A DNA stretch of 64,000 nucleotides from a virus. The notes beneath the pieces were generated by a model, which was given only the letters and a program-made list of their open reading frames with translations, was not told the origin of the DNA and did no database searches. This document shows positions 5,615-28,547 of this stretch, piece after piece. The DNA is taken from IMG/VR virus record IMGVR_UViG_3300021962_000077, positions 1 through 64,000 of that record. One strand, 5' to 3'. Every line of letters starts with the position of its first letter. Position 1 is the stretch's first letter. A program made the translations under genes and the position numbers.

Positions 5615-8284
5615 ATGGCCTTAGAGATATGGCAGAAGCGTTCTGGCTATTCGTTTGGCACATTTCAAGAGCGCATTCCGTTAGAAATAAATCTGCCAGT
5701 ATCTCCGGATGCTGGTGTAGAAACGTTCGTAGGAAGTCGATTAATAGTCGATCTAGGAACGTTTAACAATCCACGATATGCTAATGTTGACCTCGGAGTA
5801 GGGTTTGAAGAATCTCAATACGAATACGAATTTGGTGCTCCAGATAAACCTATTGTAATTCCGCCAGAAGGAGTTACCTATACTATTATTTCTGGATCGT
5901 TACCCCCTGGACTTAGACTGTCAGATTATAAAATAGTCGGTACTCCGTTTGAAGTTCCAAGACCTACAACATTTACTTTCTGTGTACGAGCAACAAGCAC
6001 AGATGATATAGCAGATAGAACTTTTTCAATTACTATCGAAGGTGCAGATTTACCAACATTCCAAACAGCAGCAGGAGATCTTCCACTTGGTCCTGGCAAT
6101 GCCTATTATGTACTAGATTCATCTTTTGTAGATTTTCAACTTGATGCTGTAGATTTTGACACAGCCACTGGCCAAAAGCTGCATTTTTTCATAGCCAACG
6201 ACGATGGAGATCTTCCACCCGGGCTCACACTCAGCGGTGATGGAAAAATTACAGGATTTGTTGAACCTGCACTTGCCATAAAGAAAAGTGACGGTGATGG
6301 TTCATATGACAGTGGGCCGTATGACGCTGTAGTCTACGACTTCGGCGGTAGACCAAGTGATGGATATGACAGTTATGTCTATGACATTGTCAGTTATGAT
6401 TATAACATACCTACAAATACTCCTACTAAAGTTAATAGAAATTACGAATTTATTGTTTCCTTAAGTGATGGCGATACTATAAGGCAAAGAAAATTTAAAA
6501 TATTTGTTGTGGCTGATGATTATTTTAGAGTCGACAACACCCTACTTCCAGTAAGTACAGGTATATTTAAAGCCGACGGCACATTCTTAAGAAATCCAAT
6601 TTGGAGAACAGAAGCTAATTTAGGACAATATAGAGCAAACAACTATGTTACTCTAATGCTAGATATCTACTCTACTGTAGACACAGGATTAATTAGCTAT
6701 AGTATTGATGCTAGCAATTTGTATGATGCTGATCTGCTGTATACCGTAGACGACAAAGTATTATATAAAGACAAAACATACATTTGTATTAAAAACACTA
6801 CAACTCCAATTACAACACCTGACTTAGACAGTGAACATTGGTTGTTATCTAAAGTGCCGCCTGGTCTATTATTTGATTCATCAACCGGCGAATTGTTTGG
6901 CATAGTACCTTATCAACCTGCTGTTACAAAACAATATATTTTTAATGTACTGGCTACTAGATACTCAAATACTTTAGAAACTGCTTATAGTAGTAGAACA
7001 TTTACTATCGATATAATAGGTGAGATTGACAGCACAATCCATTGGTTAACTGATAATAATCTAGGAAACCTAGCTGCTAACTACACTAGTAATTTAAAGG
7101 TAGAAGCTGCCACTACAATTACAGGGGCAGTGTTAGTGTATAGCTTAGAAAGCGGCAAATTACCCCCAGGATTGAGTTTATCGTCAGACGGTGAAATAAT
7201 TGGAAAAGTAAATCAATTTTCAACTATTAATAAATCTGGGCTTACAAGATTTTATGATGAATCTAATTTTGATATTATCTATACTACATTTGATCAAGGC
7301 ACAACATCTATTGATCGTTCATACACATTCACAGTTAAAGCACGAGATCAATATAACTACAGTGCTATAACTAGAGAATTTACAATAAATGTAACTACAC
7401 CAAATGATAAACTTTATAGTAATCTAACTGTAAAACCGTTTATGCCAGTTGCACAAAGAAATATTTTTAAGTCATTCATAACTAATAATCTTGTATTTTC
7501 AGCAGGCAGTATCTACAGACCGAATGATTCAGAATTTGGGATTCAAACACAATTGAAGATGCTGGCCTATGCAGGCATAGAGACTAAAGAAGCGGCAGTG
7601 TATGTAAGTGCGATAGGACTTAATCACAAAAAGAAACAATTTAAATTTGGGGATATTAAAAAAGCAGTGGCTAAAATTCCCGGAACAAATACTGTAGTTT
7701 ATGAAGTAATATATGTGGAAATGTTTGATCCATTAGAACCAAACGGTAAAAGATTGCCTAATAAGATCAAAAATATCAGTAAAGACCAACACAAAATAAC
7801 TATTGACTCGACTAACGATTTCTGGAGTATAAGCCTAGATAGTCTAGAAGAAGATAATTTTTTCAATGGACGTAGGCCTAACCCATCTATAAAAATAGAT
7901 CAAACTAATATACAAATAAGTGATCCTAATACTAGAAATATTTTTCCATCTAGTATTTCTAACTGGCAGGATCGTATTAAAAATTGGAAAGATGACGAAG
8001 GTCAAGGATTATCAACTGAGCGAAACTATTTGCCCTTGTGGATGAGATCTATACAACCAGAAACAAAACAAGAACTTGGATTTATCTTAGCCATTCCTAT
8101 CTGCTTTTGCCTTCCAAATAAAGCAGACGATATATTAATTAATATTAAAAATTATGTTAAAACTACAGGATTTAATTTTAATCAATTAGACTACACTGTA
8201 GATAGATACATAATAGATTCGGTAACCAACGAGGATGGTGATAAATATCTTGTATTTAAAAATGACAGGAATACTATAACGTGA
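5615..8284 (+). CDS. Large virion protein with putative Ig (He_PIG-like) repeats
   Basis: Four (L/V)PPGL...G.(I/L).G units; CBM5/12-like insert at about aa 370-410. Confidence 0.7.
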   Translation: MALEIWQKRSGYSFGTFQERIPLEINLPVSPDAGVETFVGSRLIVDLGTFNNPRYANVDLGVGFEESQYEYEFGAPDKPIVIPPEGVTYTIISGSLPPGLRLSDYKIVGTPFEVPRPTTFTFCVRATSTDDIADRTFSITIEGADLPTFQTAAGDLPLGPGNAYYVLDSSFVDFQLDAVDFDTATGQKLHFFIANDDGDLPPGLTLSGDGKITGFVEPALAIKKSDGDGSYDSGPYDAVVYDFGGRPSDGYDSYVYDIVSYDYNIPTNTPTKVNRNYEFIVSLSDGDTIRQRKFKIFVVADDYFRVDNTLLPVSTGIFKADGTFLRNPIWRTEANLGQYRANNYVTLMLDIYSTVDTGLISYSIDASNLYDADLLYTVDDKVLYKDKTYICIKNTTTPITTPDLDSEHWLLSKVPPGLLFDSSTGELFGIVPYQPAVTKQYIFNVLATRYSNTLETAYSSRTFTIDIIGEIDSTIHWLTDNNLGNLAANYTSNLKVEAATTITGAVLVYSLESGKLPPGLSLSSDGEIIGKVNQFSTINKSGLTRFYDESNFDIIYTTFDQGTTSIDRSYTFTVKARDQYNYSAITREFTINVTTPNDKLYSNLTVKPFMPVAQRNIFKSFITNNLVFSAGSIYRPNDSEFGIQTQLKMLAYAGIETKEAAVYVSAIGLNHKKKQFKFGDIKKAVAKIPGTNTVVYEVIYVEMFDPLEPNGKRLPNKIKNISKDQHKITIDSTNDFWSISLDSLEEDNFFNGRRPNPSIKIDQTNIQISDPNTRNIFPSSISNWQDRIKNWKDDEGQGLSTERNYLPLWMRSIQPETKQELGFILAIPICFCLPNKADDILINIKNYVKTTGFNFNQLDYTVDRYIIDSVTNEDGDKYLVFKNDRNTIT

Positions 8285-10566: not shown

Positions 10567-10815
10567 ATGAAATGCAATACCTGTAATAAAGAATACACAC
10601 CAGATTGTAACTACAATCAAGGACGCTGTCCGCATCATCCACCGTTAATAAGCATACAACCTAAAGACACCAGTCGGGGACATTTTTACGTTAGCCTTAT
10701 CAAAAGCGGATTACGAATTGTAGCAGGCATTTTTCTAATTGATGGAAACTTGCTTGTTGCAGGATCATTGTTAATCCTAGCAGAAGGGTTGGGCATTATT
10801 GAGGAACTAGTTTGA
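10567..10815 (+). CDS. Small Cys-rich membrane protein
   Basis: CxxC...C...CPH followed by hydrophobic C-terminus. Confidence 0.55.
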   Translation: MKCNTCNKEYTPDCNYNQGRCPHHPPLISIQPKDTSRGHFYVSLIKSGLRIVAGIFLIDGNLLVAGSLLILAEGLGIIEELV

Positions 10816-11249
10816 AAATAGGTTTTACTTGTTCCACTTTCGACTTGTTTCACGCAGGTCATATCATAATGCTTAAAGAAGCAAAGAGCCAATGTGATTA
10901 TTTAATTGTAGGATTGCAAACCGATCCCACCATAGATCGTCCAAAAGAAAAAAATAGACCTGTTCAAAGTATTTTTGAAAGATTTGTACAGCTACAGGCC
11001 TGTAAATATGTAGATGAAATTGTAGTATATGCCACAGAGAAAGACTTAATTGATATACTACTTTCTTATCCCATAAATGTTAGAATTTTAGGTAATGAAT
11101 ACGAACACAAAACATTTACCGGTCGACAAGAGTGTATCGACAGAGGTATAAAATTTTATTATAATAAAAGAGAACATACTTTCTCAACAACAGAACTAAG
11201 GCAACGAGTTGTAGATGCAGAAGCTGAAAAGTTAATAAGGCCAATATGA
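10812..11249 (+). CDS. Cytidylyltransferase (TagD/RfaE-II-like)
   Basis: TFDLFHAGH (HxGH), LIVGLQTD, FSTTELR. Confidence 0.88.
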   Translation: MKIGFTCSTFDLFHAGHIIMLKEAKSQCDYLIVGLQTDPTIDRPKEKNRPVQSIFERFVQLQACKYVDEIVVYATEKDLIDILLSYPINVRILGNEYEHKTFTGRQECIDRGIKFYYNKREHTFSTTELRQRVVDAEAEKLIRPI

Positions 11250-18408: not shown

Positions 18409-19242
18409 ATGGATTACTATGAAACACTAGGCGTAAGAAAAAACGCCACCCAAGAAGAAATTAAAAAGGCCTACAGAAGCCTAGCAAATAAACACCATCC
18501 TGATAAAGGGGGAGATCAAGCTAAATTTAAAGACATTAGTGTGGCCTATGATACACTCAGTGACCCGCAAAAACGTCAAGAATATGATATGGGTGGAAGT
18601 CAAAACATTCATATCAATAGCGGCAATTTTCACGATGTATTTAATAATGCTTTTCAATTCCATTTTGGAGGAGGGCATCCATTTGGAGATATATTTGGAC
18701 GTAGGCAGCATCGAAATCGAGACTTAAACATACAATGTCAAGTTACACTACTTGACTCGTTTTCTGGTAAACAGTTTGAAGCTAGTTACACATTACCTAG
18801 TGGAAAAAATCAAACAGTAGTAATTAATGTGCCGCCCGGAGTAGACAATGGAGGTACTATAAGATACCAAGGGCTAGGGGACGATAGTATTCCTGGTATC
18901 CCTCGTGGAGATCTAAATGTCACTGTGATAATTATTCCAGATTCTAAATACGTGCGGCATAATGATGATCTGTATACTAATTTAGAAATAAATCCAATCG
19001 AAGCTATGATTGGCACTAGAAAGACTGTAAAAAATATAGACGGACAAGTGCTGAATATCGATGTACGTGCAGGAGTAAGTGATGGTACAGAATATGCAAG
19101 GGCAGGTATGGGATTTCCAAATATGCGAGGAGGAGCACGGGGAAGATTTGTTATAGTTGTAAAAATTAAAGCTCCGGCTGTGACCAATCCAGACTTAATA
19201 AAAAAATTGCAAAAAATTAACGAAGAAATCAACGGCTCTTGA
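18409..19242 (+). CDS. dnaJ: DnaJ/CbpA-like J-domain co-chaperone (no Zn finger)
   Basis: [14 protein letters not shown]-rich linker, DnaJ C-terminal domain. Confidence 0.92.
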
Positions 19243-19289: not shown

Positions 19290-21551
19290 ATGGTAGAGCC
19301 TAGCAATGATTTACAAATGGTTTTTGAAAAAGCCATAAGTGTAGCCAAACAACTTCAGCATGAATATTTGACAATTGAACATTTGTTATTTGCCATGCTA
19401 TGCGAAGAAAGTTTTAGTAATTGTATTTCAGGATACGGTGCAGACCCTGAGTACATAAAAAAGAATTTAGAACATTATTTGAAAAATAAATGTGATGAAA
19501 TAGTAGGGGCTAGTACAGATGTTAAACCTCGAAAAACACAAACGGTAGAACGTGTATTAAATCGTGCATTTACACAAGTTTTATTCAATGGTCGTCAAAA
19601 AATTGAACCCACAGATGTTTTTGTTGCTATGATGGCTGAAAAACGTAGTTGGAGTTACTACTACATTCAGCAAGCAGAAATAGACAAAGATAAATTTGCC
19701 GAATATATCAACAGTGGAATAGAAAGTGACGAAGAAGAACAAGTGCCAGACAATCATGCAGATAAAGCATTAAAAGCATTTACCACAAATCTAAACGATG
19801 CTGTTAAGAAAAATAAAGTAGATCCAGTAATTGGCAGAATTGAAGAACTGGAAAATATAAGCCTTGCATTGGGTAGACGCAGTAAGAATAATGTTATTCT
19901 TGTTGGAGATCCTGGTGTAGGTAAAACTGCCATTGCAGAAGGTCTAGCATTTAACATTGTTAAAGGTGCAGTTCCAGAATTTCTTAAAGACTATCAAGTG
20001 TTTAATTTAGACATTAGTGCTATGTTAGCAGGTAGCAAATATCGTGGAGATTTCGAAGAAAGATTTAAACTTGTACTAAAAGGCCTACAAAAGAAAGGTA
20101 AAACAGTACTGTTCATTGACGAAGCACACATGATTAGTGGTGCAGGTTCGGCTAGCAATAGTGCTAACGATCTTAGCAATATGATGAAACCTGCTCTAAG
20201 TAAAGGTAATATCAAAGTAATTGCCAGCACTACTTGGGAAGAATATCGCAAACACTTCGAAAAGGATCGCGCATTGATGCGTCGATTCCAACGTATTACT
20301 GTAGACGAGCCTACTACAGAAGTTACACTACAGATACTTAAAGGCATCAAAAAATATTATGAACAATTTCATAATACAAAAATTAAAGATGATGCTCTAC
20401 AGGCTGCAATTAAACTTAGTGTAAGATATCAAACAGATAAAAAATTACCTGACAAAGCAATCGACTTAATCGACTTGGCTTGCAGCCGATTTAATCTTAA
20501 ACTAGCAGATGAAAGAGTGGTAACTGAAAATGAAATTCAATTTGAAATAGCCAAACTTCTTCAAATGCCTGAAGAACAGATCAGAGAAGCAGAAGATGTA
20601 GGCTTAGTAAAATTAGAAGATCAATTATCAGGAGAAGTTTATGGACAAGGCAAAGCAATTACAGAAATTGTTGATAAGATTCTTGTTGCTAGGGCTGGAC
20701 TTAAACCAGAAAACAAACCAGTTGGGAGTTTTGTATTCATGGGGCCAACCGGTTGCGGCAAAACAGAAACTGCTAAAGCTCTAAGTAAACACCTTGGTGT
20801 AAAACTTATTAGATTTGATATGAGTGAATATCAAGAAAAACACAGTATAAGTAAACTGATCGGTAGTCCTCCTGGGTATGTTGGCTTTGAAGAAAATGCC
20901 GGTCTGTTAATTACTCAGGTACAAGAGTCACCTAACTGTGTTTTATTATTCGATGAAATTGAAAAATCGCATCCTGATGTGAGTACAGTATTATTACAAA
21001 TGATGGATAACGGATTTGTTACAGGATCAAATGGGAAACGTGCTGATTGCAGAAATGTTATTTTAATTCTGACAACAAATCTTGGGGCTCAAGAAGCTGA
21101 AAAAAATACCATAGGTTTTGGTCGTCAAGAAAAAGATCATGATGATAAAGATCTTAAGAAATTCTTTACTCCAGAGTTCCGTAATAGACTCGATGCGATT
21201 GTTACATTTAATAAACTAAACAAAGAGACTATGGTTAAAATTATTCATAAGTTTGTTGATGAATTAAAAGATCAAGTCAAAGATAAAAGCATACGTGTTA
21301 AAATCGACTCTGCTGCTACAGAGTGGTTAATTGAAAAAGGGTTTGACGCTAAGATGGGTGCAAGACCGTTACAGCGTGTTATTGATAAAGAAATTAAACG
21401 TCCTATGGCTAGGTTAATGCTATTTGGAGATTTAAAACAAGGCGGTAGTTTAAGTATTACTGTTAAAGATGATCAAATTTTCTTAGTAGCAAAACCAAAA
21501 GCAGTTCGGATACCATTATTAACTGTGGAAAAGACAAGTGATACGGTGTAA
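19290..21551 (+). CDS. clpA: ClpA-like AAA+ chaperone
   Basis: Clp N-domain, two Walker A (GDPGVGKT, GPTGCGKT), IGF ClpP-docking loop, no ClpB middle coiled coil. Confidence 0.92.
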   Translation: MVEPSNDLQMVFEKAISVAKQLQHEYLTIEHLLFAMLCEESFSNCISGYGADPEYIKKNLEHYLKNKCDEIVGASTDVKPRKTQTVERVLNRAFTQVLFNGRQKIEPTDVFVAMMAEKRSWSYYYIQQAEIDKDKFAEYINSGIESDEEEQVPDNHADKALKAFTTNLNDAVKKNKVDPVIGRIEELENISLALGRRSKNNVILVGDPGVGKTAIAEGLAFNIVKGAVPEFLKDYQVFNLDISAMLAGSKYRGDFEERFKLVLKGLQKKGKTVLFIDEAHMISGAGSASNSANDLSNMMKPALSKGNIKVIASTTWEEYRKHFEKDRALMRRFQRITVDEPTTEVTLQILKGIKKYYEQFHNTKIKDDALQAAIKLSVRYQTDKKLPDKAIDLIDLACSRFNLKLADERVVTENEIQFEIAKLLQMPEEQIREAEDVGLVKLEDQLSGEVYGQGKAITEIVDKILVARAGLKPENKPVGSFVFMGPTGCGKTETAKALSKHLGVKLIRFDMSEYQEKHSISKLIGSPPGYVGFEENAGLLITQVQESPNCVLLFDEIEKSHPDVSTVLLQMMDNGFVTGSNGKRADCRNVILILTTNLGAQEAEKNTIGFGRQEKDHDDKDLKKFFTPEFRNRLDAIVTFNKLNKETMVKIIHKFVDELKDQVKDKSIRVKIDSAATEWLIEKGFDAKMGARPLQRVIDKEIKRPMARLMLFGDLKQGGSLSITVKDDQIFLVAKPKAVRIPLLTVEKTSDTV

Positions 21552-22173
21552 AGAAACTAAAAAACTGTTCATGGACGAGTATGCTTACAAGGCAGTATTA
21601 GTTGTTCCAGGAGCACACTGGTTTAGATCAAATGATTTGGATGGTGTTAGTAAAAGAATACGTGCCCTAAAACGCGGTGGTAGTCCCTACAAGTCTGGTT
21701 TTATTACTATAAAAAATGAAGATGATCTACAGTATATAGAAAAACTTGTCAAAGTATTAAAGCAGATGACTGACTTTAATATTAGAGTTGAGATCCCGTT
21801 AGTCAGTGTCTATACTAATTTACCAACAGACATTGACAAATTATGTAGTTTAGATTCAGAACGAGTCAAATATATATCTAAACCTCCTAGCCAAGGACTA
21901 GATAAAAATATAGTTGTTATGAATCGTACAGGTTGGGATTTTAAAATAACACTAGGACCAACTAGCCAAAATTACAGTAATTTTGTCGAATGGGCAGAAA
22001 ACGGGAAAGATCTTGTTAAATTAACAGGCAGCGCAAAGAGAGCTCTAATGCGTGACTCCCACTGGGGCGGCAGTCATTTTTATGCTAAAAACGACAAAGC
22101 AGTTACTATGACTCGTGTGTTTTTAGGCGATACAATCAGTAGAGTCGATCAAGTAGTTAATCTTAAAGATTAG
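21538..22173 (+). CDS. Hypothetical protein
   Basis: 211-aa ORF, GTG start overlapping the clpA end. Confidence 0.65.
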   Translation: MIRCKETKKLFMDEYAYKAVLVVPGAHWFRSNDLDGVSKRIRALKRGGSPYKSGFITIKNEDDLQYIEKLVKVLKQMTDFNIRVEIPLVSVYTNLPTDIDKLCSLDSERVKYISKPPSQGLDKNIVVMNRTGWDFKITLGPTSQNYSNFVEWAENGKDLVKLTGSAKRALMRDSHWGGSHFYAKNDKAVTMTRVFLGDTISRVDQVVNLKD

Positions 22174-22229
22174 GAAATATCTGTATACTGCGTTTACGAT
22201 AAATACATTGTAAATGCAGGATATTTCTT
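22172..22229 (+). promoter_or_regulatory. Late promoter (TAAATA 22200-22205) in the loop of an RBS-sequestering hairpin
   Basis: ctgcgtttacga-taaataca-ttgtaaatgcag plus outer aggaaatatc/gatatttctt. Confidence 0.7.
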
Positions 22230-22577
22230 ATGAAAATAATAGAGCTATTTGAGGACTTTCAACTACCTTCAGAAAAAAAGGACGATAAACTACCCTTTGA
22301 TCTTAAAGACGATTTAGAATTCTTCATGCGAAATGACGATGATTTTTATCGTCGTCACTACTATCCTCACATCATCAAATGTAAAAACTATATGGAATCA
22401 GGCAAAAACCTGGGTCCACGTGCATTTAAAAAACTTGTAAACCACGCTTACGAGTGCTATACTAAAAAATTCCCTGTTCGTCAATTACCTGATTCATTAG
22501 AAGAAGACATAGTTAACAAGATATGTTCTAAATTGCATAATGAAGAAGTAAAATATATTAAAGAAAAAGTCTATTGA
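22230..22577 (+). CDS. Hypothetical protein with CTS-like N-terminus
   Basis: MKIIELFE start. Confidence 0.65.
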   Translation: MKIIELFEDFQLPSEKKDDKLPFDLKDDLEFFMRNDDDFYRRHYYPHIIKCKNYMESGKNLGPRAFKKLVNHAYECYTKKFPVRQLPDSLEEDIVNKICSKLHNEEVKYIKEKVY

Positions 22578-22578
22578 T

Positions 22579-23310
22579 ATGAAACTCAAAGAAGGCGGCA
22601 ATGTAGTTCCAGGTGCTGTAGAACTTACACGCAAAAATTTTAATACAGCAGTACATAATCTAAAAAAAGTGTTGCCTGACGGTATTAATGTATATCCTAT
22701 TGGATCAGCTGGGCACAAAGAAGTTAGCAGTGACATTGATGCACTTATTGATGCCGGCGAACTTATGGCTGTTTTTCCCGCTAAAGAATTAAAATTAAGT
22801 CGTAAAGCATTAGAAGATTACTTTAAAGAACAAGGCCTGTTTGCTGCTAGAACAGGAGTAAGTATCCACGTTGGTATCCCTACTGGTGAAGGCGATAGCG
22901 TAGTACAAGTAGACTTAATGGCAGTAGAAAATGCTGCCCGCGTACAACCTTTACACACGCATGATTATACCGATCCAACTATGAAAGGTGGAACCTTACA
23001 TGGTATGTGGGCAGATCTTGCCAACCTAAGTTCTTTACCCGATCATTCTAGTTTAATGATGAGTCCATATAAAGGTCTAGTAGACAGAGAAACTAAAGAA
23101 TTAATAACACACGACAAAGACGAGATAGCAAAAATTATTATCGGTCCTACTGCCAGTGCAAGCGACATGGGTAATCCTAAAAGAGTATTAGCCGCGCTAC
23201 AACAATATCCAGACAAGTATAAAGCAATCAAAGACAAATACTTCCCACAAGAAAGTCTAGGCACAGCCAGTTGGTTTAGACAAATGATTAATATTGCGAG
23301 CGTAAAATGA
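22579..23310 (+). CDS. Pol-beta-superfamily nucleotidyltransferase-like protein
   Basis: IGSAG-x6-DID...VQVDLM (GS, DxD, third D). Confidence 0.65.
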   Translation: MKLKEGGNVVPGAVELTRKNFNTAVHNLKKVLPDGINVYPIGSAGHKEVSSDIDALIDAGELMAVFPAKELKLSRKALEDYFKEQGLFAARTGVSIHVGIPTGEGDSVVQVDLMAVENAARVQPLHTHDYTDPTMKGGTLHGMWADLANLSSLPDHSSLMMSPYKGLVDRETKELITHDKDEIAKIIIGPTASASDMGNPKRVLAALQQYPDKYKAIKDKYFPQESLGTASWFRQMINIASVK

Positions 23311-24458
23311 GACTAAGACAACTGTTTGAAGCTGCGCCTCCGGCTGTTGGTCGTAAATATCAACATATTGAAGATCTTGTTTTCACCAATGGTTCAAGTG
23401 GTGGCTTGCATGCCATTGAACGTATGCGTCATATGACAGAAGCAGGTGGCAACATTGAATTAAAATGGGATGGCAGTCCTGTTATATATTGGGGCAGAGA
23501 TGAAGCGGGTAGATTTAGTCTAATACCAAAAAATGCTTGGGAATATCTCAAAAGAGGTAAAACAGAAACTAATACTGGTGCCAAGACAGTAATGAATTCT
23601 GCAGAAGATGTTAGAAATTTTATCATGCAGACCGGCAAAGCAGAACCAGGTAGAGAAGCAGAAAGAAAACAGTACGCTAAACAACTAGCTGATCTTTGGC
23701 ATTTGTTTGAACAGGCTAGTCCTGAACGTGGATTTATTGAAGGCGGTCTATTATTCTTTCCTGGTGCGCCAGCTGTACTAAACAAACAAACACTAGAATG
23801 GGATTTCACTCCTAATATTACCAGTTTCCATATACCAAAAGATTCAGAACTAGGTAAACGTATTGGCAAAGCTAAAGTAATGATTGCTGCCACTGGCTAC
23901 TATGAATCACTGGGTAGTAGTGATGAATCACGTTATCCGAACGCAGAAGAATTATCTACACCCACAGTTATTGTGCAAGGTACTACCTATGTAGAAGAAG
24001 CACCTAATATTCCGCAAGAAGGTCTTGACCGTATAGAAAATTTCATACAAACAAATGCTGCTGCCATTGACGGATTTATTGCAGGTCAGCCTGGTCTAAG
24101 TAAACCAGGTGATGTTCTTTATAAGTTTTACAATCAAAATTTACGAATAGCTGGTGTTAAGCAAAAGTTTATCGATTGGGCTACTGCTAATTTGTCAGCA
24201 GGACAAGCACAAAAGGTAGTAAAAGATCCTAGACTAAATGTTGTATTAGATGCTGTGGAAATGTTAACTAACGAAAAGATGAAGATTATTCAACAGTTAA
24301 GTCAAGGTACACATGGAAATATTAGACAGACTAAACCAGAAGGTTATGTGCAAGCGCATCCAGGAGCACGAGCATCTGGAGAACCGTTTAAACATGATTT
24401 GCCTGGACAGTTTGTCAAGGCTATTGACCAAGCCAATTGGGCTCCAAGGAAAGACTAA
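23307..24458 (+). CDS. ATP-dependent ligase-like (KxDG) nucleotidyltransferase
   Basis: HIEDL, KWDGSP (motif I), IEGG, PEGYV, VKAID; MRLRQLFE start. Confidence 0.6.
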   Translation: MRLRQLFEAAPPAVGRKYQHIEDLVFTNGSSGGLHAIERMRHMTEAGGNIELKWDGSPVIYWGRDEAGRFSLIPKNAWEYLKRGKTETNTGAKTVMNSAEDVRNFIMQTGKAEPGREAERKQYAKQLADLWHLFEQASPERGFIEGGLLFFPGAPAVLNKQTLEWDFTPNITSFHIPKDSELGKRIGKAKVMIAATGYYESLGSSDESRYPNAEELSTPTVIVQGTTYVEEAPNIPQEGLDRIENFIQTNAAAIDGFIAGQPGLSKPGDVLYKFYNQNLRIAGVKQKFIDWATANLSAGQAQKVVKDPRLNVVLDAVEMLTNEKMKIIQQLSQGTHGNIRQTKPEGYVQAHPGARASGEPFKHDLPGQFVKAIDQANWAPRKD

Positions 24459-24459
24459 T

Positions 24460-25266
24460 ATGCGTCTAAGAGAATTATTACAAGAAGATATAGATAGAAC
24501 AGGCGAAGGTAAAAGTGCAGTTGTAGGCTGGGGGCGTGGTATGGGGCATAAAGGCCATATGTTCTTGGCCAGTAGTGTTATTACACAAGCCAACGATACC
24601 GATAGTGATCCATATTTTGTTGTTAGTCGTACTGTTGGCAAAGATGATCCTATTACGCCAGAAGAAAAATTAGCAATTTATAAAAAAGTATTTCCTAAAC
24701 ACGGTCATATCTTTCAAACAGCTACAGAAGAAATGCCCGACCTTACACGAGTCTTAACTAGATTAAATCAGCATGGGTACACAGATGTAACTGTGGTTGT
24801 AGGTGCAGATCAAGTTAACGCTCTAAGTTATGTAAAAAATTATAATGGTAAACCTAACAAAGCAGGAGATATTCCGTTTCATTTTAACACATTAAATGTT
24901 ATCAGCAGACAAGAAACAAATGATCCAAGCCGCGAACAAGAAGGACCACGTGCTACACCTATGCGAGCTGCTTTAATGGATCCTACAAAGTCAGAAGAAG
25001 AAAAATTTGCTGTATGGCGTGATGCTATGAGTCCAGAGCTTAGTGACGAAGAAGTTATGGATCTAATGCAGAAAGCACAACAACGTATGGCTAGTTTTGA
25101 AAAACCTAAAGCGGCAAAGAAAAGTAAAGAAAAAGAAGTAGCAGAAGTTGCACCCAAAGGTTGGGAAGGTACTGTTAAAGCTATGAAGAAACACGATGAT
25201 ATTGATAATCCATGGGCACTAGCACATTGGATGAAAAACAAAGGCTATAAAAGTCATAAGAAATGA
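24460..25266 (+). CDS. HxGH cytidyltransferase/adenylyltransferase-like protein with basic C-terminal module
   Basis: WGRGMGHKGH, VVGADQ, RATPMR; MRLRELLQE start. Confidence 0.65.
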   Translation: MRLRELLQEDIDRTGEGKSAVVGWGRGMGHKGHMFLASSVITQANDTDSDPYFVVSRTVGKDDPITPEEKLAIYKKVFPKHGHIFQTATEEMPDLTRVLTRLNQHGYTDVTVVVGADQVNALSYVKNYNGKPNKAGDIPFHFNTLNVISRQETNDPSREQEGPRATPMRAALMDPTKSEEEKFAVWRDAMSPELSDEEVMDLMQKAQQRMASFEKPKAAKKSKEKEVAEVAPKGWEGTVKAMKKHDDIDNPWALAHWMKNKGYKSHKK

Positions 25267-25550
25267 AACAGTATAGAATTACATCAGCCGATATTAATCA
25301 AAGTAGCCCAGACGATTGTTATCTTGCACCTGAAGATCCTATACATGAATTAAAAGCCATACAACATCTAGCTGGATTAGGCAGTGATGCTAGACTACAT
25401 GAATTGCGTGTCAAACAAGGTAGTAATATATCTGTAACTGGTATGGAAAAAGCAGAGCTAATGCGTAAGCATAATATTAAACCCGGAACTGACGAATGGT
25501 TTAAACTTTGGTTTAGCAAGCCTTATCTTACAGGAGAAAAACCTGTATGA
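25263..25550 (+). CDS. Hypothetical protein
   Basis: Coupled 95-aa ORF; IKPGTDEWFKLWF. Confidence 0.6.
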   Translation: MKQYRITSADINQSSPDDCYLAPEDPIHELKAIQHLAGLGSDARLHELRVKQGSNISVTGMEKAELMRKHNIKPGTDEWFKLWFSKPYLTGEKPV

Positions 25551-26950
25551 AAATTTTAGATATTCTTGAAGACCAAACTGATCAGCCAGATCTGATACAG
25601 GCATTTAAAGATTTCCTGCCGTTGGCAATGAAAGAACTTGATCTTTCTCAACTACCACCTATTAAATTAGAACCAAAAATAGAACAAAAAAATCAGCCCA
25701 CCTTTGGACGGTTTCAAGAAAAGGCACAGGTGATTTATCTTGGTATAAAAAATAGGCATCCTATTGACATACTAAGAACTCTGGCACACGAGCTTGTACA
25801 CTATAAACAACTATTAGACGGTAAACTTGGAAGTAAGCACAGTGGTGACACCGGAAGTCCAACTGAGAACGAAGCACATGTAAGAGCAGGAATTATAATG
25901 AGACATTTTGGCAAACAATTTCCTCATTATTTTGATGATCAAGCAGTAGAACTAGACGAAGATGCAAGTGATCGTGAAATACATAACTATGAAAAACTAG
26001 ACAAGATTCTAGTTTTATTATGTAAAATGGTCGTTAAAGGTCAAAAGAAAGACAAAGATTACTATGGTATGGTTGCAGCCTGTGTTTTAGATCCCGATAA
26101 TCGCATGGTTGCTAAGGTAAACTATCCTAGAGAAGACGGACTACGTGTTCATGCAGAACGTGCTGCTATGGAAGCATATTATGACAAATATGGAGAAATA
26201 CCCGAAGGTAGTATTGTAGTGACCACACTAAGTCCTTGCAATGAGTTTAGTGACGAAACAGCAGACGGACGTGCGGGTAACAACTGTGTAGATCTAATTA
26301 ATAATAGTCCAATACGTAAAGTCTATTGTGGTTATATGGATCCTAGTCAAGGTGACGAATCACATGCGGAACGTGACTTTAATCTTATGGAAACTGAAAA
26401 CGGTAGCATACGTGAACTATGCAAATCTTTTGCAGATACTTTTTTAGACGAAGATCAACATCCAAATGACATACCACGCGGTCCTGAATTTAAACCTACT
26501 ATGCCAGCAGGTACTGTTAGAGTAGATGTAAGCGATGTATATGACTGGTATAAGTTAGGTAAAAATATCAGCAACTTAGGTAATGCTAAAGCTAGTGATT
26601 TTGGTAAGGGACCTCCTAGTACTATTATGGCATTTGGCAGCGAGCCTGAAGAACACAAGTATATTAAGAATCTAAAGAAGTTAGGATTAGATACTACTGA
26701 CATAGATCCCCTTGATCCTAAGCAACCTAAAAAAATGCCTCGTCAGAAGGTTGATCCTACTTACAACGTAGGAGAAAATTTTGCTGATGGTAAAAATCCT
26801 GGACGCAAAGGTCTAGCCAAACGCAGCGGTGTTAATACTAAAGCATCAGTAAGTACATTACGCAACGTGGCTAAACACAGCTCGGGTGAAAAGGCTCGTA
26901 TGGCACATTGGCTAGCCAACATGAAGGCTGGTAAGGCTAAAAAGAAATGA
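25547..26950 (+). CDS. Multidomain protein: zincin-like HExxH domain + RibD-like zinc deaminase + basic C-terminal module
   Basis: RTLAHELVH...E.EA; VHAERAA...TLSPC-x14-C...GYMDP; MKILDILE start. Confidence 0.7.
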   Translation: MKILDILEDQTDQPDLIQAFKDFLPLAMKELDLSQLPPIKLEPKIEQKNQPTFGRFQEKAQVIYLGIKNRHPIDILRTLAHELVHYKQLLDGKLGSKHSGDTGSPTENEAHVRAGIIMRHFGKQFPHYFDDQAVELDEDASDREIHNYEKLDKILVLLCKMVVKGQKKDKDYYGMVAACVLDPDNRMVAKVNYPREDGLRVHAERAAMEAYYDKYGEIPEGSIVVTTLSPCNEFSDETADGRAGNNCVDLINNSPIRKVYCGYMDPSQGDESHAERDFNLMETENGSIRELCKSFADTFLDEDQHPNDIPRGPEFKPTMPAGTVRVDVSDVYDWYKLGKNISNLGNAKASDFGKGPPSTIMAFGSEPEEHKYIKNLKKLGLDTTDIDPLDPKQPKKMPRQKVDPTYNVGENFADGKNPGRKGLAKRSGVNTKASVSTLRNVAKHSSGEKARMAHWLANMKAGKAKKK

Positions 26951-27546
26951 CTCTAGTTTATATACATGGTGCAAGTGCTACTAGCGAAAGTTTTAACTAC
27001 ATTCGCGAGCACATACCCGGAAAAAACATATCTGTTAACTATAACAGTGCCGATGGGTTTGAACATAACCTTAAAGATATGCAGACTGCACTAACAGATA
27101 TAGAAGATATTTTCTTTGTTGCACACAGCCTAGGGGGTATTTACGCATTGCACCTTGCAAATTATATGCCCAATCAAGTTATAGGTGCTGTAACTCTAAG
27201 CACGCCATATGGCGGTGCAGAACATGCAGACTATGCCAAATATTTTTTACCTTTTAGTAGATTACTACGTGATATAGGACCTAGTAGCTGGCCTATGCGA
27301 CAAGCAAATAAAATAGAAATACACCATCCTTGGACCAATGTAGTTACTGTGAAAGGATCGGCCCCTTGGATTATAGGCGATAATGATGGTGTTGTCACTG
27401 TTCGTAGCCAAAAAGAACACGAACACGATATGGAAATTATAGAAGTAAACATTAATCATTACGAAGTAGTGCTAAGTGAACAAGTTGTTGACATTATTAA
27501 AGAACGAATAAATATGCATACGAGTCAAAAATATGAAAATACTTGA
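26947..27546 (+). CDS. Alpha/beta hydrolase (lipase/esterase-like)
   Basis: YIHG, AHSLGG nucleophile elbow, TPYGG, NDGVV, NH. Confidence 0.85.
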   Translation: MTLVYIHGASATSESFNYIREHIPGKNISVNYNSADGFEHNLKDMQTALTDIEDIFFVAHSLGGIYALHLANYMPNQVIGAVTLSTPYGGAEHADYAKYFLPFSRLLRDIGPSSWPMRQANKIEIHHPWTNVVTVKGSAPWIIGDNDGVVTVRSQKEHEHDMEIIEVNINHYEVVLSEQVVDIIKERINMHTSQKYENT

Positions 27547-27910
27547 AATCATTACGGAAAGCGGTGGAATGAAACCTATACATCCGCAGCACAAAGCGGC
27601 TATTAAAAATGCCACTACTTTTCCATCGATGAATATGAATTCTGGAAGTCAATATTTAGGATATCGTATGGGCATTGCTCTAGCAGGTGCTCCTGAATAT
27701 CCCACTAAACAAGAAGCAGATAACTGGATCGGAGGAGATCCTTTACTAGCGCCATATACTGAAGAAGAAAACGAAATGATAAATGCCGCTGCCAAACAAG
27801 TAGGCGGAGGTAAAAGGCAAACATGGAGTAACAATCGCAGCTTAGAAACTGCGGATGTAAACAAAACAAGTCCTGTGGCTAAACGCAAAAAGAACAAATA
27901 CGGAGTTTAA
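27533..27910 (+). CDS. Hypothetical protein with CTS-like N-terminus
   Basis: MKILEIITE start; TAAATA at 27509-27514. Confidence 0.65.
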   Translation: MKILEIITESGGMKPIHPQHKAAIKNATTFPSMNMNSGSQYLGYRMGIALAGAPEYPTKQEADNWIGGDPLLAPYTEEENEMINAAAKQVGGGKRQTWSNNRSLETADVNKTSPVAKRKKNKYGV

Positions 27911-27911
27911 A

Positions 27912-28547
27912 ATGAAGATAACAGATTTATTAAATGAAGAACAGATTGCAGAAATTAGTCTAGGTGATTATCGTAAAAAAGCTATGTTAAACAAAGCCAT
28001 GGCTCAGACAGACAAATTTTTTGGCCGTGACGATCCTGAAAAAGTAGCTCATGCTGATAGAACTATTGCAAAGAGAGAAAAGGGTCTAGCCCGTGCAGAT
28101 CATCGTGCAGAGAAAAAATTACAAGCAATGCCAAAACACGAACCAGCTCCTCGTGATCCTGCTGCTGATGCAGAACGATTGGCTAAAATGAAAGCACGTT
28201 TTAGACAGCTAGGCGGAACTAGTTATCAATATGCAGATAGGATGAGTGACGATGATCGTGAAGCACAAGATCTACATCAGGCTATTCAACGTTTAGAAAG
28301 ACACTTAGGAGAAACTGCTAGTGCCGGTGCTACTAGTGCTGCTAGTATTGGTACTGTAGATGCCCCACATATTAGCCCAGGTAAAGCACGTGGTAAAAAG
28401 AGCTATACCGGTAGCCCTAGTACAGGGTCCGGGACAAAAGCACCACCACAGCCTAAGATTATACAGCCTAAAACCAGTTCAGGTACTGCTAAGAATGCAT
28501 TAGATATGAAGGGCGCGAACTTATTCGGCGCACCTATTAAACGATAA
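27912..28547 (+). CDS. Putative internal head protein
   Basis: MKITDLLNE start; modules begin after AE/GE (EISLG, ETASAGATS). Confidence 0.6.
   Translation: MKITDLLNEEQIAEISLGDYRKKAMLNKAMAQTDKFFGRDDPEKVAHADRTIAKREKGLARADHRAEKKLQAMPKHEPAPRDPAADAERLAKMKARFRQLGGTSYQYADRMSDDDREAQDLHQAIQRLERHLGETASAGATSAASIGTVDAPHISPGKARGKKSYTGSPSTGSGTKAPPQPKIIQPKTSSGTAKNALDMKGANLFGAPIKR

Follow-up and report, generated by a model that had tools for sequence, protein, structure and literature searches.

A putative capsid-delivered repair kit in a jumbo T4-related phage: a PolX-like nucleotidyltransferase, a DUF6267 candidate ligase-fold protein and an HxGH nucleotidyltransferase

Overview and proposed function

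The subject of this study is a three-gene operon of an uncultured giant phage from a jumbo lineage related to T4, which is represented by the 73.6-kb IMG/VR fragment IMGVR_UViG_3300021962_000077, rated 21% complete and thus pointing to a genome of about 350 kb. The window, as the whole stretch of DNA analysed is called here, comprises 64 kb of this record. On its plus strand, g1 (22579-23310; 243 amino acids, aa) encodes a predicted minimal PolX-like nucleotidyltransferase (NTase) of the Pol-beta superfamily that belongs to no Pfam family, g2 (23307-24458; 383 aa) a candidate divergent KxDG ligase-fold protein of the family DUF6267, and g3 (24460-25266; 268 aa) a divergent HxGH NTase of the CTP_transf_like type that resembles nicotinamide mononucleotide adenylyltransferases (NMNATs). 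We tentatively propose, with rather less than even confidence, that the trio is a capsid-delivered fill-and-seal nucleic acid repair kit whose enzymes act jointly on broken ends. The sequence-only reading that preceded this analysis had described three tightly coupled genes with three different nucleotidyl-transfer folds. The coupling was borne out by an ATGA common to the end of g1 and the start of g2 and by a gap of 1 nt between the stop of g2 and the start of g3, and the folds agree with PolX-type, ligase-type and HxGH proteins according to structure matches for g1 and g2 and profiles for g3.

In the proposed mechanism, each of the three proteins would carry a short N-terminal leader or form part of a fused polyprotein, and a gp21-type prohead protease would cut after [ILV]-x-Glu. 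Packaged in the head, the enzymes would enter the cell along with the DNA, and the repair capacity would thereby precede phage gene expression. As a stripped-down family-X-type polymerase, g1 would extend or fill at a 3'-OH, g2 would seal the break as a divergent lysine-nucleotidyl (KxDG) ligase, and g3, an HxGH adenylyl- or cytidylyltransferase nearest to NMNATs, would support the reaction in some way, which is the least certain step. The substrate would be DNA breaks and gaps, possibly with ribonucleotides filled in as a patch that an RNA-ligase-like enzyme then seals; a role in the repair of RNA comes close in likelihood. We infer the enzymatic activities of the trio, their substrate, the cleavage, and the packaging of g1 and g2 from the comparisons presented below, for which linkage was assessed in 80 related viral loci, 67 diverse multidomain proteins with a g1 domain and 66 cyanophage-type loci.

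The PolX-like nucleotidyltransferase g1

Pol-beta NTases share the signature hG[GS]-x(7-13)-DxD together with a third carboxylate on a later strand. Both elements were found in g1, with GSAG at aa 42-45 and DID at aa 52-54 forming the GS...DxD catalytic signature (G42, S43, D52, D54; 22702-22740, plus strand) and the QVD strand at aa 110-112 (Q110, D112; 22906-22914, plus strand) providing the third carboxylate. The motifs named in the sequence-only reading for the three proteins were all present and invariant or nearly so, and only the spacing had to be changed, from GS-x9-DID to GS-x8-DID. Among 50 homologues of g1 with identities down to 21%, the only invariant columns were G42, D52, D54, Q110 and D112, the same five alone were invariant again in the 67 multidomain homologues, and the signature residues G42, S43, D52, D54 and D112 were invariant or nearly so. 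Conservation of the catalytic residues, suggested earlier as a check, thus held for the motif columns of g1 as well as for those of g2 and g3 described below. A search of the whole library with g1 returned 165 cluster representatives at E ≤ 1e-3.

The AlphaFold (AF2) model of g1, computed from 50 sequences, reached a predicted local distance difference test (pLDDT) score of 92.5 and a predicted template modelling (pTM) score of 0.84. In the structure check that had been called for, the best 50 rows of a Foldseek search against the PDB were all family-X polymerases (Pol lambda, mu, beta and TthPolX) with E-values from 3.6e-6 and approximately 200 aligned columns. Structure comparison with VIA gave the same picture, the best 8 rows being all PolX (Z 10.0-10.8, root-mean-square deviation (rmsd) 3.2-3.9, 159-178 residues, covering about residues 1-210 of the model): Pol beta, TthPolX, TdT, the PolX of African swine fever virus (ASFV; 5hr9, Z 10.1, 159 of the 176 residues of the ASFV enzyme aligned), Pol lambda and the Leishmania Pol beta. 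In contrast, terminal uridylyltransferases (TUTases), CCA-adding enzymes, cGAS/DncV-like NTases (CD-NTases) and MenT covered only about 90-100 palm residues of g1 with Z ≤ 8.3, and CCA-adding enzymes and CD-NTases matched the palm alone with Z ≤ 7.3. Since the PolX matches span palm and thumb, with g1 superposing on solved PolX structures over both, whereas the other NTases match the palm alone, g1 is predicted from its model to be a minimal PolX-like enzyme built of palm and thumb, resembling ASFV Pol X. The 8-kDa deoxyribose phosphate (dRP)-lyase domain and the fingers domain with its helix-hairpin-helix (HhH) motif are absent, as VIA matches start at Pol beta residue 142 or later, and the domain content is palm and thumb alone, as in ASFV Pol X. 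Because of the match restricted to the palm, CCA-adding enzymes and CD-NTases were rejected as identities of g1, and tRNA 3'-end addition or cyclic-nucleotide synthesis, which the sequence-only reading had named for this fold, is not the best fit.

At the sequence level the relationship is much fainter. Neither Pfam (E ≤ 0.1) nor PHROG placed g1 in a family, NCBIfam and a single-sequence search against the PDB gave noise, no membership in curated PolX profile families was found, and a tblastn search against isolate phages gave no match. A profile of the 50 homologues (A1) matched the Tailor TUTase and Pol lambda over the GS...DxD stretch with E-values of 0.006-0.3, the Pol lambda rows in the PDB search being weak (E 0.1-0.5).

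The nature of g1 also bears on the main alternative, an RNA (tRNA) repair kit in which an RlaP-like g1 would restore lost nucleotides and g2, as an RNA ligase, would rejoin the ends, the enzymes being pre-made so that repair does not depend on translation jammed by anticodon nucleases; as a complete explanation this is possible, if somewhat doubtful. RlaP is reported to add one or two nucleoside monophosphates to damaged RNA (bioRxiv 10.64898/2025.12.29.696909), and a Pol-beta NTase combined with an RNA ligase and a HAD phosphatase is described as an established phage theme (PMC7824862), so that modules of this kind lend the RNA repair kit a precedent. However, g1 is not RlaP by sequence: it has no Pfam match, and a six-frame search for PF10127 (RlaP) found it in none of 5 relatives, the loci of which mostly carry a g1 homologue, with the control matching in 2 genomes. 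Moreover, the match of g1 to PolX includes the thumb, whereas RNA-specific NTases match the palm alone.

The candidate ligase-fold protein g2 (DUF6267)

The only Pfam family matched by g2 is PF19782 (DUF6267), with 58.4 bits at a cut-off of 27, although only the N-terminal part (aa 19-70) aligns well; relatives of g2 also carry PF19782 in the precomputed annotation. Profiles of the ligase families PF01068, PF01653 and PF09414 did not match g2. A motif I of the KxDG type is present as KWDG at aa 53-56 (23463-23474, plus strand), in which K53 is the candidate nucleotidyl-lysine and which is invariant across both DUF6267 clades. Candidate motifs III to V are IEGGLLF (IEGG at aa 144-147), PEGYV (aa 344-348) and FKHD (aa 361-364), the latter two occupying 24336-24398 on the plus strand. 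Across 26 sequences from the jumbo-phage and cyanophage clades, which share 21-24% identity, K53, W54, D55, G56, G146, E345 and G346 were invariant. The sole alignment of these candidates to a known motif IV-V was obtained with hhalign, in which PEGYV...FKHD falls on residues 226-243 of T4 Rnl1 without reaching significance (E 0.09).

The AF2 model of g2 has a pLDDT of 80.8 and shows an inserted helical region at approximately aa 238-333; no oligonucleotide/oligosaccharide-binding (OB) domain was seen, and a helical module is in its place. Structure comparison upheld the ligase-like fold only in part: the best 10 rows of the wide VIA search were all polynucleotide ligases (Z 5.0-6.5), but Foldseek returned no PDB row at E ≤ 1e-3, its best rows being Trl1, T4 DNA ligase and Rnl1. 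In a second VIA run (pdb_via), 49 of the 50 rows were ligases and RNA ligases took ranks 1-12, with Z-scores of 6.7 for NgrRnl (174 residues, rmsd 4.6), 6.5 for REL1, 5.4-5.7 for Trl1 and 5.2-5.3 for Rnl1 and Rnl2, as compared to at most 5.0 for DNA ligases; even the best of these lies under VIA's stated noise level of 7-8. Among the predicted viral structures of BFVD, the first 16 matches were DUF6267 proteins, at least 5 of them fused to a cytidyltransferase-like domain, and the first named matches outside the family were RNA ligases, led by that of Atu_ph07 (E 4.5e-3), the others being weaker. With DUF6267 excluded, the nearest named family in Atlas was PF09414 with a score of 0.76, to be taken as a lead only. 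Since the matches agree on ligases and the KxDG motif is invariant, we regard g2 as a candidate divergent KxDG ligase-fold protein, the individual matches being weak. The other searches with g2 were uninformative, with noise in NCBIfam and in the single-sequence search against the PDB; a further alignment profile of this analysis, A4, also gave noise against the PDB. The only PDB match of the A3 profile, to part of the N.BspD6I nickase that is helical (E 0.003), was taken as spurious, and no paper on DUF6267 was found in the literature search.

These results lend support to the RNA repair kit, because the best structural neighbours of g2 are RNA ligases that all rank over the DNA ligases, because the BFVD matches outside DUF6267 are RNA ligases, and because the model shows a helical module and no visible OB domain. 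Against this, VIA's own guidance treats Z differences below about 1 as ties.

The complete genomes of the cyanophages S-PM2 (LN828717, L001) and S-CAM1 (NC_020837, L002) gave no match to PF01068, PF01653 or PF09414 in six-frame searches, which is consistent with the reported absence of gp30 and other quasi-core genes from some marine cyanophages (PMC2993671). DUF6267 is the only ligase-like candidate in both genomes.

The HxGH nucleotidyltransferase g3

Two motifs typical of the PF01467 superfamily were found in g3: the HxGH motif near the N-terminus of the core, present as HKGH at aa 30-33 (24547-24558, plus strand; G32 and H33 invariant, H30 at least 90% conserved), and a second motif, RATPMR at aa 164-169 (24949-24966, plus strand; T166, M168 and R169 invariant). 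In CTP_transf_like proteins the second motif follows the pattern ISxTxxR, and RATPMR corresponds in the alignment to ISGTKMR and SASKVR in homologues from cyanophages, which have TTGH at the HxGH position. The core extends over about aa 14-213 and is followed by a basic tail after VAE (aa 227-229). The start was placed at ATG 24460, as homologues begin with MRLRELL, which ruled out a longer reading from 24313 (317 aa).

PHROG assigned g3 to phrog_3041 (1.9e-23) and phrog_395 (1.4e-11), both named 'cytidyltransferase', and 27 of its 30 feature neighbours in Atlas were PF01467 clusters (scores 0.94-0.95). The protein itself does not match PF01467 directly; the link is transitive via the cytidylyltransferase of locus L143 (22.1 bits) and S-PM2d138 (29.1 bits) at a cut-off of 21. 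NCBIfam returned no rows for g3 among the NMNAT equivalogs (nadD/nadR/nadM), and a single-sequence search against the PDB gave noise. From its motifs and profiles, g3 is thus probably a divergent HxGH (CTP_transf_like, NMNAT-like) enzyme. A complex prediction of g2 with residues 1-215 of g3, run with no controls, gave a score of 0.00 and a mark of 0.32.

The sequence-only reading had suggested NAD+ rebuilding or a nucleotide-signal pathway. According to this explanation, g3 would be a true NMNAT acting against NADase defences and g1 or g2 would make or destroy signals, which we consider very improbable. It can draw on S-PM2d138, a fusion of g2 and g3 homologues whose best NCBIfam rows are the NMNAT families nadD (TIGR00482, 27.5 bits, 2.9e-6) and nadR (TIGR01526, 22.3 bits, 6.7e-5), on the term NMNAT homologue used for a cyanophage enzyme by its authors (PMC10665884), and on the CD-NTases among the weaker fold matches of g1 (Z 6-7.3). 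However, the NCBIfam scores are far under the cut-offs of 112 and 341, and the explanation leaves both the PolX thumb and the repeated fusion with a ligase fold unaccounted for. In addition, the 299.6-kb relative G001 has, elsewhere in its genome (L152/L156, ~91.2-93.7 kb), a NadV-type nicotinate phosphoribosyltransferase (NAPRTase; E 6e-64) beside a canonical PF01467 gene, which looks like the standard NAD-salvage pair, and NadV was not found in S-PM2 and S-CAM1, both of which carry g2 and g3. For these two reasons NAD+ salvage by g3 is unlikely, the rebuilding of NAD+ is disfavoured, and the role of the phage's NAD-salvage NMNAT was rejected for g3.

A variant with only a small chance of being correct would retain both the cofactor and the repair function. 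Here, g2 would represent a new family of NAD+-using polynucleotide ligases and g3 would be its NMN adenylyltransferase, forming with g1 a capsid-injected system for break repair that recycles its own cofactor. NMN and ATP would give NAD+, which would give ligase-AMP, and the system would work despite the loss of NAD+ to defence NADases. If this were true, T4-like cyanophages would have their 'missing' ligase in DUF6267, S-PM2 and S-CAM1 having given no match to the three ligase families. The precedent of a viral PolX joined to a ligase that depends on NAD+ is PgVPolX (see below).

Gene order and domain fusions in relatives

A DNA-level search with positions 22000-26000 of the window gave no match among isolate phages, and the linkage of the three genes was therefore followed at the protein level. 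The synteny check proposed earlier gave a clear result. Among the 80 viral loci the order ClpA-like gene, two small genes, g1, g2, g3 is kept. A single open reading frame (ORF) covers g1 and g2 in 37 loci, to which 2 with a truncated 5' end can be added; 32 loci have two separate genes and 9 have no g1. In 77 loci, g3 lies within 100 nt of g2, and 2 of the remaining 3 have no downstream DNA. All three genes are fused in 3 loci (L032, L033, L054), and the members of the trio were found fused in every pairing. In the 67 multidomain g1 proteins, DUF6267 is present in 23 according to Pfam or in 27 according to our own hidden Markov model (HMM), in both domain orders, and PF01467 in 3; P0381 (1165 aa) and P0442 (888 aa) contain the g1, g2 and g3 domains in the order of the window. 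The protein P0447 has the RNA_ligase domain PF09414 at the usual position of DUF6267 beside the g1 domain and P0473 adds a HAD-like domain to a g1-domain protein, both of which speak for the RNA repair kit.

In T4-like cyanophages, g2 and g3 are either fused, as in S-PM2d138 (591 aa; DUF6267 1.6e-111, PF01467 1.3e-6) with an open frame in many contigs, or adjacent, as in L143, S-CAM1 and S-SZBM1. The locus lies in the replication gene block between gp41/MazG and primase. As none of the 66 cyanophage-type loci has g1 while g2 and g3 are kept, the old core is g2 plus g3, with g1 as a frequent addition.

The fusions can also be read differently. The three could be independent cargo enzymes strung together for co-packaging, or cytoplasmic enzymes with leaders that have no packaging role, which we regard as unlikely. 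Such a view is in line with the free shuffling of modules, since GNAT, sigma-70 region 4 and RuvA_C are among the further modules joined to g1 domains and a module like the gene product at 27533 in the window is found on g3 tails in relatives, and with the fact that the roles of the trio in this phage are predicted only. On the other hand, DUF6267 is the commonest partner of g1 with 23-27 of the 67 proteins, in both orders, as opposed to at most 3 for any other family. The g2-g3 pair, moreover, persists in the cyanophage replication block without leaders on g2, so that its linkage does not depend on the stringing of cargo.

Several observations on these genes stand apart from this question. 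The 125-aa leader-bearing protein at 27533-27910 is, in relatives (P0267, P0292, P0298 and others), fused to the C-terminus of g3 after VAE, which shows shuffling among cargo genes. In S-CAM1 (L002), the DUF6267 gene is immediately followed by an unannotated frame of 193 aa (6149-6727) that the g3 profile recognises (E 6e-52); the NC_020837 record lists no coding sequence between 6176 and 6977. The g2-g3 fusion gene hits stops after about 190 aa in the IMG/VR copy of S-PM2 (L131, 3001-4777), whereas LN828717 (L001, 4986-6761) and many related contigs have a single open frame of 590-597 aa, and it looks as if the two S-PM2 sequences differ by a frameshift. In cyanophages, the g3 homologue is followed by a gene for a protein of 368-457 aa (L162 6989-8362, which is S-SZBM1_139, and L143 4786-5892), the L143 copy matching no Pfam family; S-SZBM1_139 was also found in virions (PMC9146016).

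Leaders, putative cleavage sites and proposed head packaging

T4 uses a 10-residue capsid targeting sequence (CTS) together with Glu-specific processing by gp21 (PMC9026906). In the window, a leader of the form M[KR][IL]x[EDQ][LI]..E was found on 6 of the 79 listed ORFs, all of which lie within 22230-28547 and include g2 and g3. The leader of g2, MRLRQLFE (23307-23330, plus strand), ends in L-F-E before Ala and resembles the N-terminus of T4 Alt, MELITELFDE, a protein whose annotation places it in the capsid and describes its entry together with the DNA. That of g3, MRLRELLQE (24460-24486, plus strand), stands before Asp, and the N-termini of its orthologues share M[RFLK]LR..[LIF].E. The pre-sequence of g1 is MKLKE (22579-22593, plus strand), with L-x-E directly before the conserved GGN. 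The claim that all three genes bear a CTS-like leader therefore holds for g2 and g3, whereas g1 has only MKLKE with an L-x-E site.

The putative cleavage motif is strongly conserved. At the start of the g2 core, P1 is Glu and P1' is Ala in all 80 loci and P3 is Ile in 39, Leu in 37 and Val in 4, and this [ILV]-x-E/A is the same in fused and split g1-g2 forms. Triple fusions retain I-Q-E at the g2/g3 junction. Of 116 g1-domain starts, 82 show xxxGG[NKAG], 77 of these having Glu at P1 and 77 having Leu, Ile or Val at P3; several g1 homologues begin directly with MGGN or MSGN. Among 5 long relatives, 3, one of them the 299.6-kb contig, matched Peptidase_S77, the family of gp21-type prohead proteases, with scores above the cut-off; the family was not found in the 73.6-kb record of the window itself, which is 21% complete.

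The g3 family also includes proteins detected in virions. Two proteins annotated as 'cytidylyltransferase', S-SZBM1_140 (PMC9146016) and S-CREM2 ORF154 (PMC10665884), are reported from purified virions by liquid chromatography-mass spectrometry (LC-MS). Both were confirmed as g3 homologues (hhalign probability 97.1%, E 5.9e-11; HMM E 6e-27 and 2e-17) and their starts are leader-like (MRFRQFIIE/A and MKNFSSFLTE/A, respectively). The neighbouring S-SZBM1_141 was confirmed as a DUF6267 homologue. Because the [ILV]xE sites are conserved, a gp21-type protease occurs in relatives and g3 homologues are found in cyanophage virions, a head-packaging and injection route for the trio is plausible, as is the pre-packaged, injected delivery that had been suggested from the sequence.

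DNA or RNA as the substrate

DNA as the substrate is favoured by the PolX fold including the thumb, by the precedents of PgVPolX and ASFV Pol X, by the position of the cyanophage genes in the replication block and by the results for S-PM2 and S-CAM1, in which the three ligase families gave no match; the last point is drawn from profile searches. The RNA repair kit faces a further difficulty, as the operon contains neither a kinase nor a 2',3'-cyclic-phosphodiesterase to heal the ends typically left by anticodon nucleases. It gains, on the other side, from the canonical ATP-dependent DNA ligase that G001 encodes separately at ~42.4-42.9 kb. DNA repair via a ribonucleotide patch would reconcile the evidence on the DNA side with that on the RNA side.

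Several points weigh against a jointly acting kit as proposed here, or against DNA as its target. The nearest structures of g2 in the model comparisons are those of RNA rather than DNA ligases, and G001 already has a canonical DNA ligase, both of which favour RNA repair. Each fold match of g2 is weak when taken singly (Z ≤ 6.7 against a noise level of 7-8), its profile (A3) gave no significant hhalign alignment to T4 Rnl1, Rnl2 or gp30, and no measured activity for g1, g2 or members of their families was found in the literature search. The gene g1 is missing from the cyanophage-type loci and from 9 of the 80 viral loci, as described above, and in the window it has the 5-residue MKLKE only and not a full leader. 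The DUF6267 proteins of cyanophages, including S-SZBM1_141, have no leader, and S-SZBM1_141 does not appear in the main text of the virion paper (PMC9146016). The role of g3 in the trio would be the least certain step, its class being assigned from sequence. Finally, as g3 tails and g1 domains are also joined to unrelated modules (GNAT, sigma-70 region 4, the 27533-like module), fusions of cargo modules may reflect co-packaging and not a shared pathway.

Comparison with known systems

ASFV Pol X works together with the ASFV ligase. In PgVPolX of Phaeocystis globosa virus 16T, a PolX core is reported to be fused to an NAD+-dependent ligase, combining gap filling and sealing (PMC5537341). The trio shares with both systems a small viral family-X core that has a polynucleotide ligase as its coupled or fused partner, the likeness to the ASFV enzyme extending to most of its length in the structural alignment given above. 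In contrast to them, the partner here is DUF6267 instead of an NAD+-dependent (LigA-type) ligase or a member of an ATP-dependent ligase family, as no Pfam ligase profile matched, and g1 has no detectable sequence membership in PolX families. Further differences are the third, HxGH enzyme, the bacterial host and the predicted signals for head targeting and cleavage.

The phage modules composed of RlaP (PF10127), Rnl1 or Rnl2 and HAD proteins resemble the operon in that an NTase of the Pol-beta superfamily is genomically coupled to a lysine-adenylate ligase; the nearest folds of g2 are RNA ligases, and one homologue has PF09414 in place of DUF6267. They differ in the NTase, since g1 is not RlaP by HMM and has a PolX-like thumb, as opposed to the helical domain described for RlaP, and the operon has no kinase or phosphoesterase. 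In the accessible literature on these modules they are not reported as virion cargo.

With T4 Alt and the other internal proteins, as described in the accessible literature, the trio shares a short N-terminal leader ending in Glu with Leu or Ile at P3, a gp21-family protease in relatives and, as proposed here, the delivery of enzymes with the DNA. The cargo differs from that of T4 in consisting of repair-type enzymes that are often polyproteins with internal [ILV]xE junctions, and for this lineage both cleavage and packaging are predicted. Polyvalent injected proteins are reportedly a related concept. The cyanophage 'cytidylyltransferase' (T4-like gene cluster 71, S-PM2d138; also S-SZBM1 and S-CREM2) comes closest in its genes, with homologues of g2 and g3 and with g3 homologues reported in virions, but g1 is absent from those loci, DUF6267 has no leader and the genes are located between gp41/MazG and primase.

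The coupling of PolX with a ligase, NTase-ligase repair modules and CTS-loaded cargo are thus each already known. What appears to be new is the occurrence of a PolX-like family in phages, its pairing with DUF6267 as a ligase-type partner, the recurrence of an HxGH enzyme as the third member and the apparent delivery of the trio through the capsid as cleavable polyproteins. A 2022 review of phage DNA polymerases names only ASFV under viral family X in its accessible text (PMC8775771), nothing related to a phage-encoded PolX was found in the accessible texts of the literature search, and a search for 'cytitidyltransferase' combined with cyanophage gave no match. If the proposal were true, g1 would belong to the first polymerase-X-like enzyme family described for bacteriophages, a function would be available for DUF6267, a family widespread in marine and freshwater myoviruses, and phage capsids would carry ready-made nucleic acid repair enzymes, which would join ADP-ribosyltransferases, anti-restriction proteins and RNA polymerases as a further class of known injected cargo. 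The long-annotated and unexplained cyanophage 'cytidylyltransferase' gains a concrete, testable context, and the conserved [ILV]xE junctions would offer a polyprotein design, taken from nature, with which foreign enzymes could be packaged in T4-type heads.

Neighbouring genes and further observations

The DNA polymerase encoded in the window is closest to those of jumbo myoviruses, with the Sinorhizobium phage Phosso (50.5% identity) followed by Atu_ph07 and SCTP-2, and E. coli phages of 350-380 kb are also among its nearest relatives. Whereas shuffles predict 9.3 copies of the T4 late-promoter word TATAAATA for the window, a single one was found, so late promoters, if present in this phage, differ from those of T4; sigma-70 and terminator scans of the window were no better than shuffles.

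The cluster opens with a leader-bearing gene for a 115-aa protein beginning with MKIIELFED (22230-22577, plus strand), which is separated from g1 by 1 nt and is kept upstream in most of the 80 loci. Just before it, and named from a reading of their sequences, are a DnaJ-like protein (18409-19242) and a 753-aa ClpA/ClpB-like ATPase (19290-21551), the latter being syntenic with the trio in nearly all 80 loci. Downstream, an ATGA is also common to the end of g3 and the start of the next gene. In a leader-bearing protein of 467 aa at 25547-26950, an HExxH stretch (HELVH) occurs together with a cytidine/deoxycytidylate deaminase domain (PF00383, 1.3e-8); the next protein, an alpha/beta hydrolase, has no leader (26947-27546). 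A second, small gene of the cytidylyltransferase type with an FHAGH motif is located at 10812-11249, unrelated to the position of g3.

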